NCBI GenBank assembly: GCA_040507985.1
Contig: JBEVNR010000012.1
Coordinates: forward strand, 111,905-175,904
Source of the DNA: Rickettsiales bacterium
GTDB taxonomy: Bacteria > Pseudomonadota > Alphaproteobacteria > Rickettsiales > UBA6187
Direction of reading: 5' to 3'
DNA length: 64,000 nucleotides
Below, one piece after another: positions 10,155 to 18,257 of this stretch (the stretch's first letter is position 1; each line of letters starts with the position of its first letter). The notes below the pieces were generated by a model. It was not told the origin of the DNA, did no database searches, and saw nothing but the letters and a program-made list of their open reading frames with translations. Both the position numbers and the translations under genes were made by a program.

Positions 10155-10763
10155 TTAATTATTTACGGACGGATCAAGCCCGGCGACGTTAGTCGAAGAC
10201 GTCGTTCGGGAAATGGCATCACGCACGGTCACTTCGGTCATTTGCAATGTTTGTTGTGACAAATCGACCGAAGACGCGTTTAGAGATTCTATCATAGCGC
10301 TTTGCGGGATTTGCAATAGCAATCCTGACATAGACAGTGTAGACGACTTTCGGGAAATCGGAACCGATACAGAGAGTAGCTCTGATCCTCCCATATTGAC
10401 CGAAGACGGCGCGCGGGAAACGGAGCCGGATTCCAAAGGAGGGGCGGAAGGGAAAAATACTTGTTTTTTGCAGGTCGGACAATAACATGCAACTTTATAG
10501 GGTTCAATATACCTTCCGTCGTTGAAAATAACAATCTCTCGAGAAAAAGCCACTGCTTGTGTGTTGCAATCAGAACATGACTCATCAAGCGTAGTCTTCA
10601 AAATAGATGATTTATGTTCCTTGGCATTGCAGCCTTCGCAGTTATAGCGTTGAGTTTCTTTATTCCAAATAAGGTCACTTCCCGGGCAACAAGGACTGGC
10701 GCCCTTATAAGACAATACAGGCGAATCAGTTTCTTCCGGAACAGATTCTTTTGACGCAGACAT
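10155..10763 (-). CDS. Orphan Cys-rich hypothetical protein
   Basis: 202-aa ORF in visibly AT-richer DNA; CEGC, CSDC and CPTC motifs; coding strand partly ambiguous. Confidence 0.45.
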   Translation of the reverse strand: MSASKESVPEETDSPVLSYKGASPCCPGSDLIWNKETQRYNCEGCNAKEHKSSILKTTLDESCSDCNTQAVAFSREIVIFNDGRYIEPYKVACYCPTCKKQVFFPSAPPLESGSVSRAPSSVNMGGSELLSVSVPISRKSSTLSMSGLLLQIPQSAMIESLNASSVDLSQQTLQMTEVTVRDAISRTTSSTNVAGLDPSVNN

Positions 10764-12088: not shown

Positions 12089-12847
12089 CTACTGTACGTC
12101 GCTTTCTTTGGCGCCGGTATTCAACGTGTCTTTTTCGTCGTCGGATTTTTTGGTTTCTTCGCCTTTTTTCTCTTCTTGTTTTACTTCAGGCTTAGCGTCG
12201 GTTTTTGACTCGGCGCCATCGGTCGCTTTTTCTTCCGGTTTTTCACCTTCTTCGGCGGAATCTTCGCCTTCTTCGTCGCCGACGGTTTGTACTGAAGCCT
12301 TCAAGAACGCAGGATCGGACGCGAGTTCGCCGTCGTTGACGATCACTTGCAGGGTGCGTTCGTCGTTTTCGCTTTTCGGCGCGTCAAAGGCGACGCGTTG
12401 CAGCGCGGTTTCGTAGTCTTGCAGCGGCGCAACGCCGGAGATGGTCAGGGTTTTGGTCGCGGAATCGAAGGCGGATTTTAAGTCGGTGCCTTCCAAATTG
12501 ACGGAAAGCGCTTCGTTTTGGGCGGTGGAGCCGGTAATTTGCACGGTCGCCGAAGCCAGCGTGTCGCCGTCGTCGGAAATGGCGACGCGTCCGCTCGCGT
12601 CGGACAATACGGGAGCGGCGTTTTCAATGTTTTCCGCCGAAACGGTTTTGCCGGGTTGCGCGGGCGTCGTGAGGGCCGACGTGGTTTTTGCGTCCGGCGT
12701 CGTTCCCGTCGCGGTTTGCGATGCAGCGGGCGCGTCGGTGGCGGAATTGGTTGCGTTACGCACTTTTGCGGGGTCGAAATAGTTTAGCGCGACGATGCCG
12801 GCGATGCCGACGACGGCGGCGGTGGTGACGAGAAGAGCTTTACCCAT
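12089..12847 (-). CDS. Membrane-anchored protein with a single adhesin-type (cadherin/Ig-like) repeat and acidic tail
   Basis: N-terminal TM helix, Thr/Ala linker, APVL...ISDDGDTLASATVQIT...LTISG...DYETALQRV.F...RT...VNDG segment, E/K-rich C-terminus. Confidence 0.7.
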   Translation of the reverse strand: MGKALLVTTAAVVGIAGIVALNYFDPAKVRNATNSATDAPAASQTATGTTPDAKTTSALTTPAQPGKTVSAENIENAAPVLSDASGRVAISDDGDTLASATVQITGSTAQNEALSVNLEGTDLKSAFDSATKTLTISGVAPLQDYETALQRVAFDAPKSENDERTLQVIVNDGELASDPAFLKASVQTVGDEEGEDSAEEGEKPEEKATDGAESKTDAKPEVKQEEKKGEETKKSDDEKDTLNTGAKESDVQ

Positions 12848-14189: not shown

Positions 14190-14981
14190 TTACCTGCCCT
14201 CGCGAATTTCCCTGACGAAATTTTTCGTCGCGCGCGCCGCGTCGTCGCATCCCTCCAGGCGGCGCAGATAGGCGCTCGCGATGACGGCGCCGTCGAGGCT
14301 TTCGGATATGCGGTCGAACGTTTCCTTGGACGACACGCCGAAGCCGCCGATAAGGGGATTTTTTTCGCATAGACGCTTCACGCGGGCGTAATAGGCGCGG
14401 GCCGCGTCAGTCACGTTTAATTCCCCTCCCGTAATGGCCGACGACGAGACGGCGTAGATAAAACGCTCGGACATGGCGTCGATTTCCCTTATGCGCTCAT
14501 CCGGCGTGTGGGGAGAAATTAAAAACACGGGCTTCACGCCCTTGGCGTCGAAAATATGTGCGTAACATCGGCGATAGATATGCGGCGGCATGTCGGGAAC
14601 GACGACGCCGGAGACGTCCAGCTCCGCGCAGCGATCGCAAAACTTCTCCGGCCCGTATTGCATGATCGGGTTGAGGTGGCCCATCAAATAGACGGGCATG
14701 GACGCGCCGCGTCGGCGTAATTCCTCTAATTGCCGCAGGACGACGTCGACGGTTATGCCGTTTTCGAGCGCTTTTTTATTCACGCGCTGAATGGTCGGGC
14801 CGTCCGCCACCGGGTCGCTGAACGGCATGCCAAGCTCGATGAAGTCGACCTCGTTCCCTTCTTCCAGCGCGTCGACGACCTGAAGCGCGGAATCAATTTG
14901 AGGATATCCGGCCGCCACGTAAAGCGAAAATAACTTGGGATACGCGCCGCCGCTGCGGGAGATGAGGGAAAAGCGCGTCAT
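14190..14981 (-). CDS. trpA: Tryptophan synthase alpha subunit (Bacteroidetes-like sequence)
   Basis: [19 protein letters not shown] with catalytic Glu and Asp, FIYAVSS.ITG, GFGV. Confidence 0.92.
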
Positions 14982-16180
14982 GCGGCCGGCTCCCGCAAGC
15001 GTTTTTCGCGATGCGCGAGCAGGGCGTCCATGTCTTTTCTGCCCGATCCGGAGAGGTTGACGACGATAATCGCGTCTTTTCCCCGTTCCATATGTTCCAA
15101 ATAAGCCAGGGCGTGGGCGCTTTCGACGGCGGGAACGATTCCCTCGGTCAGCGCCAATAATTGCGCGGCGTTTAGCGCTTCTTCGTCCGTTACCGTACCG
15201 TAGCGCGCGCGTCCACAGGTTTTAAGGAAGGCGTGGAACGGCCCGACGCCCGGATAGCTGAGTCCGGCCGACACGGAATAACTGTCCTTCACTTGCCCGT
15301 CGGCGGTTTGCAGCAGCAGCATCTTGCTGCCGTGCATCACGCCGGGGGATCCTTTGGCCAGGGCGGCGGCATGGCGTTCGGATTCCACCCCTTCCCCTCC
15401 GGCCTCGACGCCGATTAATTTCACCGACGCGTCGTCCAAAAAGGCGGCGAACGCCCCGATCGCGTTGCTTCCCCCGCCCACGCAGGCAATAATGGCGTCA
15501 GGCAGGGAGCGGTCGGTCTGCTCTTGCACCTGTCGCGCGATTTCGTCTCCGATCACCCGCTGAAACCGCATGACCATGTCCGGAAACGGATGCGGACCGA
15601 CGGCGGAGCCGATAACGTAGTGCGTTTCCGCCGGATTGGCTATCCAGTCGCGCAATGCCTCGTTTGTGGCGTCTTTCAAGGTTGCCGTTCCGGTCGAGAC
15701 CGGCACGACCTTCGCGCCCAGATATTCCATGAGCTTCACGTTGGGGCTTTGGCGCTTCGTGTCGACTTCGCCCATATAGACGGTGCAATCCAACCCGAAC
15801 AACGCGCAGGCCGACGCCGTGGCCACGCCGTGTTGGCCCGCGCCGGTTTCCGCGATAATGCGGGTCTTGCCCAGCCTTTTGGCGAGCAGTAACTGCCCCA
15901 CGGCGTTGTTAATTTTATGCGAGCCGGTGTGGTTCAGGTCTTCGCGCTTTAAATAAATCCGGTTTCCGTATCGCTCCGAAAGGCGCGAAGCGAAATAGAG
16001 CGGTGAGGGCCTGCCGGTGTAATCGCGCAACAACGTCCCCAATTCTTGCCGAAAATCGGGGTCGTCCGTTATCTCCACATAACGGCGCTGCAATTCCAGA
16101 ATGTTTGGGCGCAGCATTTCGGGTATGAAGTCGCCGCCAAATTCTCCGTAAAAGCCGTGCTCGTCAACGGCGTAACGCAT
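14978..16180 (-). CDS. trpB: Tryptophan synthase beta subunit (Bacteroidetes-like, with non-canonical motif residues)
   Basis: [15 protein letters not shown] (PLP Lys), AETGAGQHG and GGGSNA motifs; overlaps the trpA start. Confidence 0.95.
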
Positions 16181-16292: not shown

Positions 16293-16793
16293 TCATCCTC
16301 GTTGCGCCCTTACCTTAAGCGCCGGCGCCACAAAGGCGTCGGGCGAAAAAAACGCGGATATGGAAGATAACGGAGGCAAAGAAGAAGCGTCGTTCGCGGA
16401 GCGATTCCGACGCGAGGAAGCGGAAGGGCGCCCCTCCCTTCGGCGCTCGCAAATGACGCGGCGCGCGCCTTTGGCGGTAAGGTGCGGATCCATTCCCGCA
16501 AGCGCGCACACCTCGCGGAAATCTTCGTTGTCCGCGGTAAACCACGCGATGGATTCGGCGCGGGCGCGTTTAGCCTCGGGTTTGGGCGATCCGCTTTGCG
16601 CGTCGATCAGCGCCTGCAAGATAACGAATTGCCATAGCGCCTTATATTCCCGCTCGTCAGACGCGACGCATTGCGCCATGCTTAGCGCCGCGTTTTTTTT
16701 ACTTGGTTGCGCTTCCGGCGGCGTCGGCGCCTCGCTTATAACGAGATGCAGTCTCGTGCCGTTTATCGTTGCCCCGGACGTACTTATTTTCAT
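16293..16793 (-). CDS. Hypothetical protein, phage-like helical domain
   Basis: LWQFVILQALIDA...AWF...EDFREVCALAGMDP segment; 166 aa. Confidence 0.6.
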   Translation of the reverse strand: MKISTSGATINGTRLHLVISEAPTPPEAQPSKKNAALSMAQCVASDEREYKALWQFVILQALIDAQSGSPKPEAKRARAESIAWFTADNEDFREVCALAGMDPHLTAKGARRVICERRREGRPSASSRRNRSANDASSLPPLSSISAFFSPDAFVAPALKVRAQRG

Positions 16794-16953
16794 GACCCTC
16801 TTCCTATGATTAAAACTTTTGGTTTAGTAGAAAAAAATCTAATCTATTCTAGATTTTAATGGAAGGGGAGACGTCGTACAAAAATAATTCCTTTTATAAA
16901 AAACTCATAATCCGTCCTTTCGGATAAAAAATATTTTCTTCAAGGAATACATA

Positions 16954-17400
16954 ATGAATTTACACAAAAAATACATAAAGCTATCCGTTTTTTCGGACGA
17001 TTCCCCAAAATCGTCCCCTCGCTCGCGACGCCCCGTCAAGGAGGCGGAAAAAAAGCACGAATGGGCGCGGCAATATGTCGAAATATCCAAAAACCTGCGC
17101 GGATTGCTGCTTTTTCTTTCCAGGGAATTATGTTCGTCGCCGGGCTCCGGCGGCAATACGGAAGGATGGGAAGATTCCCTGTTCGGAAAAAACGAGTCGC
17201 CGTTGGGCGCCGTCGGCAAGCTGGCGGCGCACGCCGCGAAATTGGCGGAAACGGAGCAATATTGGCGAGATTACCTTGCGCGGGTCGAACGCGGGAGCGA
17301 GGAAAGCGGGTCCGAAGAATTTACCTGCGCGGAAATGGACGCGATGGAGAGATTTTTGCGCGCCCGGCGTCCGGAGGCGTTCGCCCCTTCTTGTCCGTAA
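16954..17400 (+). CDS. Hypothetical protein
   Basis: 148-aa ORF with AAGGA SD; divergent from the 16793 gene across an AT-rich spacer. Confidence 0.6.
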   Translation: MNLHKKYIKLSVFSDDSPKSSPRSRRPVKEAEKKHEWARQYVEISKNLRGLLLFLSRELCSSPGSGGNTEGWEDSLFGKNESPLGAVGKLAAHAAKLAETEQYWRDYLARVERGSEESGSEEFTCAEMDAMERFLRARRPEAFAPSCP

Positions 17401-18181: not shown

Positions 18182-18257
18182 TGGTGGAGTCGATGGGAGT
18201 CGAACCCACGACCTCCGCATTGCGAACGCGGCGCTCTACCAACTGAGCTACGACCCC
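18182..18257 (-). tRNA. tRNA-Ala(CGC)
   Basis: Reverse complement GGGGTCGTAGCTCAGTTGGTAGAGCG...TT-CGC-AA...GTTCGACTCC...TCCACCA; 76 nt, encoded CCA. Confidence 0.95.

Follow-up and report, generated by a model that had tools for sequence, protein, structure and literature searches.

Can a biosynthetic tryptophan synthase work without the aspartate at the centre of its textbook model of allosteric closure? A trpB gene from a Rickettsiales bacterium raises this question. The gene lies on the minus strand of a 64,000-nt stretch of DNA (positions 111,905 to 175,904 of contig JBEVNR010000012.1, assembly GCA_040507985.1), which we call the window, and encodes a tryptophan synthase β subunit with serine at position 305 (Salmonella numbering). 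Asp305, equivalent to Asp300 of the Thermotoga and Pyrococcus enzymes, is the hallmark of biosynthetic TrpB1. The window protein is a new variant of this known enzyme. It is probably the sole active housekeeping TrpB1 of its genome, coupled to TrpA and carried by a foreign trpBA pair, with a neutral hydroxyl latch that would replace the Asp305 carboxylate.

An intact TrpB1 with serine at position 305

The window gene encodes an intact protein of the TrpB1 family. Its minus-strand frame is free of stops over 400 aa and holds HTGSHKINN with the lysine that binds pyridoxal 5'-phosphate (PLP), AETGAGQHG with the catalytic glutamate, the GGGSN phosphate loop and NLSGSGRKD (Table 1). A sequence-only reading of this DNA had reported two altered motifs beside an intact PLP lysine, AETG glutamate, GGGSN loop and NLS serine; translation and alignment bear out the alterations (Ser305, codon AGC, and NLSGSGRKD) as well as the intact residues. 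We numbered residues by aligning the window protein to Salmonella TrpB (St, 397 aa), which puts K87, E109, R141, K167, D305, S377, R379 and D381 correctly. On this numbering the window protein has K87, E109, R141, K167, S297, S299 and S377, together with Ser305, Ser379 and Arg381.

Profile and structure searches agree on the family. The protein scores 581.6 bits against TIGR00263, the NCBIfam trpB equivalog (cut-off 392.45; 581.3 bits in the genome search), and stays below the cut-offs of the TrpB2 models TIGR01415 (173.6 bits against 518.85) and PRK12391 (183.7 bits against 366). It matches TrpB1 chains in the PDB with a best E of 1e-155. The curated score, Lys87, Glu109, GGGSN, Ser377, a tree placement inside TrpB1 and a TrpA partner gene are all present, and the aspartate that defines TrpB1 (St 305, Tm 300) is serine. 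The 'Res6' signature of stand-alone enzymes (LBCA and Pelodictyon TrpB, PMC11917138) is matched at one of its six positions, Ser187.

The protein also appears to work with TrpA. The next gene downstream is trpA, whose ATG overlaps the trpB TGA as ATGA, and αAsp56 and βLys167 are both kept, which points to partnering. Window TrpA retains Glu49, Asp56, Asp60, Thr183, Gly211, Gly213 and Ser235. Its phosphate-loop Gly234 (St; window residue 235) is Ala, as in its two relatives within the clade (P0122 and P0123), and Gly in 117 of 117 other TrpAs.

Table 1. Positions of trpBA and of diagnostic codons in the window, with Thr305 TrpBs from elsewhere
Feature	Location	Strand	Evidence or remark
trpB, tryptophan synthase β, 400 aa, TrpB1 type, of foreign origin	14978..16180	-	TIGR00263; PDB matches; sole genome copy
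trpA, tryptophan synthase α, 263 aa	14190..14981	-	TIGR00262, 190.7 bits against a cut-off of 102
Ser305 codon AGC (window residue 308), hallmark Asp replaced	15257..15259	-	Translation and alignment; same AGC in L054
Ser379-Gly380-Arg381 codons TCG GGC AGA (TCG 15046-15044, AGA 15040-15038), against Arg-Gly-Asp	15038..15046	-	
PLP-binding Lys codon (St Lys87, window Lys89), intact	15914..15916	-	
Catalytic Glu codon (St Glu109, window Glu111), intact	15848..15850	-	
COMM-domain Arg codon (St Arg141, window Arg143), usual salt-bridge partner of Asp305, kept	15752..15754	-	
Thr305 TrpBs	L062:3004-4197; L063:704-1897 (metagenome contigs)		Proteins P0372, P0391-P0403

Rarity of the two substitutions

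The two altered motifs differ in weight: Asp305 to Ser is rare, and Arg-Gly-Asp (RGD) to Ser-Gly-x (SGx) at 379–381 is ordinary. Position 305 is Asp in 148 of 148 compared TrpB1s, made up of 119 best database hits and 29 sequences from members of its own family or order. The best hits were drawn from a 5.8-billion-protein collection and are all at most 66% identical to the window protein. At 379–381 the same 119 hits read RGD in 89, SGN in 23, SGQ in two, and SGT, EGE and DGE in one each. In the tree, the SGN proteins, whose Asp305 is normal, make up a Bacteroidota subclade with good support. RGD to SGx is therefore ordinary variation in the gene's own group, found in about a quarter of its closest homologues, and would be a clade marker of little functional weight. 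R379 and D381, which the sequence-only reading had taken as conserved in TrpB1, are not reliably so, SGN, SGQ and SGT being common beside a normal Asp305 in the donor-type clade described below. That reading had named as a possible refutation that its residues might be common in ordinary TrpB1; this holds for SGx and fails for Ser305 (0 of 148).

Wider surveys also put Ser305 among the rarest states of the position. A published table of 18,051 TrpB-like sequences lists Asp in 13,491, Arg in 3,840 (TrpB2), Glu in 79, Asn in 60, Val in 30, Gly in 17, Ala and Gln in 14 each, His in 5, Cys in 4, and Lys and Ser in 3 each, the last being 0.02% (bioRxiv 10.64898/2026.03.11.711232, Suppl. Table 1). 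We scanned the DNA of 185,579 species genomes, the window's own excluded, for S[IV]SAGL-x-[YF]P-x-[IV]GP with an x codon that does not begin with G, a degenerate pattern whose context fits 111 of 150 TrpBs (~74%) and which is blind to Ala, Gly, Val and Glu at 305. Nine real TrpBs were recovered (seven Asn, one His, one Tyr), each one base from Asp, and within this context and genome set Ser305 was absent. The serine codon of the window, AGC, is two base changes away from either Asp codon; the simplest path to it would run from GAY through AAY (Asn) to AGY.

A metagenome scan for the codon WSN returned an intact TrpB with Thr305, a fragment with Thr and a TrpA–TrpB fusion with Ser305. The fusion is an independent occurrence of Ser305, in a 665-aa frame of eukaryote-like architecture on the marine metagenome contig Ga0115005_10052395 (L045:1378-1415). 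A word-index protein search with residues 286–330, a region that shares too few exact 5-mers, had three candidates and returned the query alone.

Inheritance under purifying selection

A clade has inherited both Ser305 and SGR. The nearest relatives of window TrpA come from two short metagenome contigs (71% and 66% identity), and all others are at most 50% identical. Contig L054, from a beach-sand metagenome, carries the final 161 codons of trpB upstream of trpA with both Ser305 and SGR; contig L056 carries the final 59 codons, with NLSGSGRKD. The Ser305 codon is AGC in both the window and L054. Their TrpBs are 74.5% identical in amino acids, with saturated synonymous sites (pS 0.66), a dN of 0.185 and a dN/dS of ~0.12, as expected of a gene under purifying selection. 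L054 also holds ctaA and hemA, 58% and 81% identical to the window genome's pair and adjacent in both, and so derives from an organismal relative.

These data leave next to no room for an artefact. The genome is a 58-contig draft, which is what a sequencing error, an assembly error or a decaying gene could appeal to. An independent assembly from another sample has the same Ser305 and SGR at 74.5% amino acid identity and a low dN/dS, so Ser305 is not an error; the assembly fault that the sequence-only reading had allowed for is refuted by L054. The codon is also two substitutions from Asp and the frame is intact. An alignment of 149 other TrpB1 sequences has 143 columns conserved at 95% or more, of which the window protein keeps 141 (the median departure of the others is one). 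One of its two departures is a conservative Thr to Ser, and the other is Asp305 to Ser.

The sole TrpB of a tryptophan pathway

The window gene serves a genome that retains the steps leading to it. The assembly amounts to 2.07 Mb in 58 contigs and is 91.7% complete. A profile search of the contigs found one trpB only; the second canonical copy that the sequence-only reading had proposed looking for was not among them. The genes trpD, trpC and trpF are present and intact on other contigs, and we dropped an indole-salvage reading on that account. The only two chorismate-binding enzymes of the genome (C29:13392-14156 and C58:34289-35047) are a PabB-like protein, whose score of 297 bits falls short of the cut-off, and a divergent 618-aa chorismate-utilising fusion, which has a C-terminal glutamine amidotransferase domain and scores 108 bits to fused anthranilate synthase. 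Rfam and promoter/terminator scans found no attenuator or T-box around trpBA.

We read the enzyme as active because it is the sole TrpB, its feeding steps are kept, its other catalytic and interface residues are retained and it is under purifying selection. The same facts make it improbable that the protein has been neofunctionalised for another amino-acid substrate or nucleophile, with tryptophan no longer its main role. That idea, hinted at in the sequence-only reading, gains from the changed substrate specificity of the D305A mutant (PMC9512447) and the enrichment of D300N during tyrosine synthase evolution (bioRxiv 10.64898/2026.03.11.711232). It fits poorly with the only trpB of a genome retaining trpD, trpC, trpF and trpA, translationally coupled to trpA and with Glu109, which directs indole chemistry, intact; nor does the protein differ, besides 305, at more than the single conservative column noted above.

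Foreign origin of trpBA

The trpBA pair is a xenologous replacement older than the split between the window and L054 organisms. The best TrpB hits are of Bacteroidota/Pyrinomonadaceae type (at most 66% identity). Across 400 genomes from the host's own order, TrpB identity stays at or below 59%, and the trpBA cassette is absent from them all. The nearest homologues lie in trpEGDCFBA operons of Bacteroidota/Acidobacteriota-type organisms. The TrpBs of related genomes are of the alphaproteobacterial type (NLCGRGDKDIFT) and just 52–58% identical to the window protein. Phylogeny agrees: the window and L054 TrpBs form a clade (support 100/99) that falls with the Bacteroidota/Acidobacteriota-type group (100/100), and the approximately unbiased test rejects a placement with the TrpBs of their own order (p = 0.014). 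Because the two sit together in this donor-type group, the acquisition precedes their split. Their stem branch, at 0.84, is long (median 0.13).

Neighbouring enzymes and gene order tell the same story. Window TrpA is 42–43% identical to TrpAs of donor-type operons and 27–35% to those of its own order, whereas TrpF of the genome is about 35% identical to the donor type and up to 50% identical to its own order, a pattern that fits a foreign trpBA and a native trpF. Among relatives, 23 of 29 loci have an unbroken trpF-trpB-trpA run, and three more have trpF-trpB with trpA undetected in a short flank. The genome's own trpF (C9:23614-24246) has genes like sppA and asmA before it and maf and proS after it; this locus is the ancestral trpF-trpB-trpA site, emptied of trpBA. 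The host would be an alphaproteobacterium, judging by the trp arrangement of its relatives, their TrpB type and the ctaA-hemA pair.

The surroundings of trpBA hold several further features. Three ORFs of 166, 104 and 148 aa without an NCBIfam or Pfam match occupy 16293-17400, from trpB to uppS; lying between the foreign trpBA and a tRNA gene, they could be insertion remnants. The tRNA gene (18185-18257, minus strand; RF00005, 69.8 bits) is ~2 kb upstream of trpBA, between uppS and rpsI-rplM. Two minus-strand ORFs near ubiE, 12089-12847 (252 aa) and 10155-10763 (202 aa), also lack an NCBIfam or Pfam match.

A remodelled latch hairpin

Position 305 sits at the switch between open and closed enzyme. 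Arg141, in the COMM domain, is known to form hydrogen bonds with Ser297 and Ser299. When the Salmonella enzyme is closed and active, in its R state, this arginine is paired with the carboxylate of Asp305 (PMC9512447). The Asp305 side chain also touches the bound L-Ser hydroxyl and Thr292/Ser297 in the allosteric switch, and Asp at this position marks TrpB1 as Arg marks TrpB2 (PMC11917138, PMC1854888, bioRxiv 10.64898/2026.03.11.711232). The D305A and R141A mutants of Ferrari et al. (2001, 2003) shift towards the open-state external aldimine, with perturbed allostery and altered specificity (PMC9512447). D300N is enriched in active evolved tyrosine synthases (bioRxiv 10.64898/2026.03.11.711232). 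The part that the sequence-only reading gave Asp305 in closure, allostery and specificity accords with this literature (PMC9512447, bioRxiv 10.64898/2026.03.11.711232).

Ser305 is accompanied by other changes in the same hairpin. Relative to 119 of 119 donor-type homologues, the clade has Ser for Pro/Ala at St297 and Asp/Asn for Glu at St296. We considered a coupled change of 305 and 296, Glu296 being missing in 9 of 13 variants against a background of 18 of 148, and rejected it: Glu296 is found in 40 of 95 diverse Asp305 representatives. Nor do we ascribe to Ser305 an AlphaFold2 pLDDT below 50 over the latch hairpin (residues 272–311) of window TrpB. The Asp305 homologue P0002, a control run with the same alignment, dips too (273–296), so the dip is an artefact of a shallow alignment.

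We propose the following course of events. A trpBA pair would have been gained horizontally from a Bacteroidota/Acidobacteriota-type donor and displaced the ancestral trpB-trpA after trpF. The hairpin would then have been remodelled in the recipient lineage by Asp305 to Ser, 297 Pro/Ala to Ser and Glu296 to Asp/Asn. The resulting TrpB, with its coupled TrpA, is expected to convert indole-3-glycerol phosphate and L-serine to tryptophan by normal PLP β-replacement chemistry. A neutral hydroxyl would take the place of a carboxylate that normally has two partners: Arg141 when the enzyme is closed and, through a hydrogen bond, the hydroxyl of serine when it is open. Ser305 can donate or accept a hydrogen bond, and hydrogen bonds, in place of a salt bridge, may maintain the R state; a hydroxyl-based latch thus plausibly replaces the ionic one. 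The balance of open and closed states is probably altered. A less stabilised closed state could bring a different dependence on TrpA and monovalent cations and possibly another tolerance of side reactions or substrates. The active but retuned enzyme of the sequence-only reading survives in part: an active enzyme with a changed latch is the best reading (catalytic set, sole trpB, coupling to trpA, purifying selection), and the SGR motif adds little to it.

Several points weigh against an active enzyme with a working hydroxyl latch. The perturbation caused by D305A (PMC9512447) means that activity with Ser305 could be substantially impaired unless compensated. A molecular dynamics study found no correlation between the salt bridge and closure of the COMM domain (PMC9083551), in which case Ser305 may change little. 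The genome is 91.7% complete, so that a second trpB could sit in the missing part, and no clear anthranilate synthase/TrpE scored above the curated cut-off in the genome.

The simulation result opens onto a further explanation, that Ser305 is effectively neutral or fully compensated in an ordinary TrpB1 and was fixed by drift once the gene had been transferred into a lineage with small genomes. We regard this as unlikely, though far from negligible. The recurrence of Asn, Thr, Ser and His in otherwise intact TrpBs and the long branch of the lineage agree with it. The constancy of Asp in 148 of 148 relatives and the scarcity of Ser among the 18,051 tabulated sequences imply, by contrast, strong selection elsewhere; perturbation is clear in the laboratory mutants D305A and R141A, and positions 296 and 297 changed along with 305.

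Natural parallels

Aspartate 305 has been lost elsewhere, in settings of different kinds. Among 111 cluster representatives that cover the position, taken from clusters of 1.84 billion proteins, 16 lack Asp; several of the 16 have lost Lys87 too and resemble pseudoenzymes, Rhodobacterales paralogues among them. Three Rhodobacterales proteins annotated as TrpB (P0364, P0413 and P0414, from Celeribacter halophilus and Pacificibacter marinus) combine Tyr87, Asp109 and Ser305 and are candidate bacterial TrpB pseudoenzymes.

A SAR11-type lineage has replaced the same aspartate in an intact enzyme. A TrpB cluster of 247 members (P0372 and 246 others), one annotated as Candidatus Pelagibacter sp., has Thr305 with K87, E109, R141 and K167 intact. 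Every full-length member that we read has Thr305, in the hairpin GAGITYFSVGP, and the gene lies in a canonical pyrF-trpF-trpB-trpA-accD-folC locus. A housekeeping TrpB without Asp305 is thus not unique to the window, and the SAR11-type one is abundant. Our literature search found no paper describing the Ser305 clade or the SAR11 Thr305 TrpB.

The two clades might together form a natural class of salt-bridge-less tryptophan synthases. Such enzymes would share a hydrogen-bonded hydroxyl latch (Ser297, Ser299 and Ser305 to Arg141), a looser closed state, a different dependence on TrpA or cations and a broader tolerance of electrophiles and nucleophiles. We put this forward as a speculative extension and think it quite unlikely to hold in full.

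Implications

These genes bear on a residue that both nature and the laboratory have altered, changes at Asp305 having been exploited by a plant pseudoenzyme and by a laboratory-evolved tyrosine synthase. A sole-copy Ser305 under purifying selection, together with the SAR11 Thr305 lineage, suggests that TrpB can do without the carboxylate in vivo, at least in certain contexts. Ser305 enzymes and their Asp305 homologues at 66% identity are matched natural material for weighing the contribution of the Arg141–Asp305 bridge. Were the salt-bridge-less class real, its members could serve directly as starting enzymes for biocatalysis, and nature would have provided a test of the bridge's disputed role. 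In addition, trpBA of this alphaproteobacterium, whose genome is small, is a clean example of xenologous replacement; in other respects the biology is that of ordinary tryptophan biosynthesis. The interest of the case is moderate, and chiefly for those who study the allostery of tryptophan synthase or engineer TrpB.

Comparison with known systems

The closest comparison is with canonical TrpB1 (Salmonella typhimurium, 1K8X; LBCA TrpB, 5EY5; an ancestral TrpB, 9VGL). Profile hidden Markov models and the tree put the window protein in the same family, and it shares the PLP lysine, catalytic glutamate, GGGSN, Ser377, Arg141, Lys167 and the adjacency and coupling to trpA. It differs in Ser305, which precludes the Arg141–Asp305 salt bridge of the closed state, and in Ser379 and Arg381 for Arg379 and Asp381. 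The Salmonella βD305A and βR141A mutants have likewise lost the carboxylate at 305 or the salt bridge. Those mutants were engineered by changing one residue of an enzyme adapted to Asp, whereas the serine of the window is natural, inherited and capable of hydrogen bonding, and 296 and 297 are changed with it.

The plant TSB-like pseudoenzyme (Florean et al. 2025, PMC12727527) is a natural TrpB1 derivative with the same aspartate changed and its allostery towards the α subunit affected. TSB-like proteins activate TSA to release indole (PMC12727527), and by analogy the window protein could be a non- or weakly catalytic TrpB whose main task is to activate TrpA for indole release. The differences make this very improbable. 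TSB-like proteins have Asp changed to Glu, have lost the catalytic Glu (to Ala, Ser or Pro), are non-catalytic and accompany a normal TSB. Window TrpB has Ser at 305, keeps Glu109 and Lys87 and is the single copy, with no second catalytic trpB in the genome. Moreover, the change to Glu has been proposed to lock the enzyme in its active form, the opposite of a loss of charge.

More distant enzymes share the absence of the aspartate and little else. TrpB2, the O-phospho-L-serine-dependent, indole-scavenging homologue of PLP fold-type II, also lacks Asp at 305; it has Arg there (PMC1854888), whereas the window protein has Ser and groups with TrpB1. The evolved Thermotoga tyrosine synthase is active with a neutral polar residue, D300N, at the same position (bioRxiv 10.64898/2026.03.11.711232). 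Unlike the window enzyme it was engineered, carries E105G and many other mutations, and was selected for phenol alkylation.

The SAR11 Thr305 enzyme is likewise natural and a housekeeping TrpB, belongs to an alphaproteobacterium whose genome is small, and has a hydroxyl at 305 beside an intact catalytic set. It is the product of a vertically inherited alphaproteobacterial gene, only ~45% identical to the window protein, and differs further in having Thr where the window has Ser and in a hairpin that has diverged much more.

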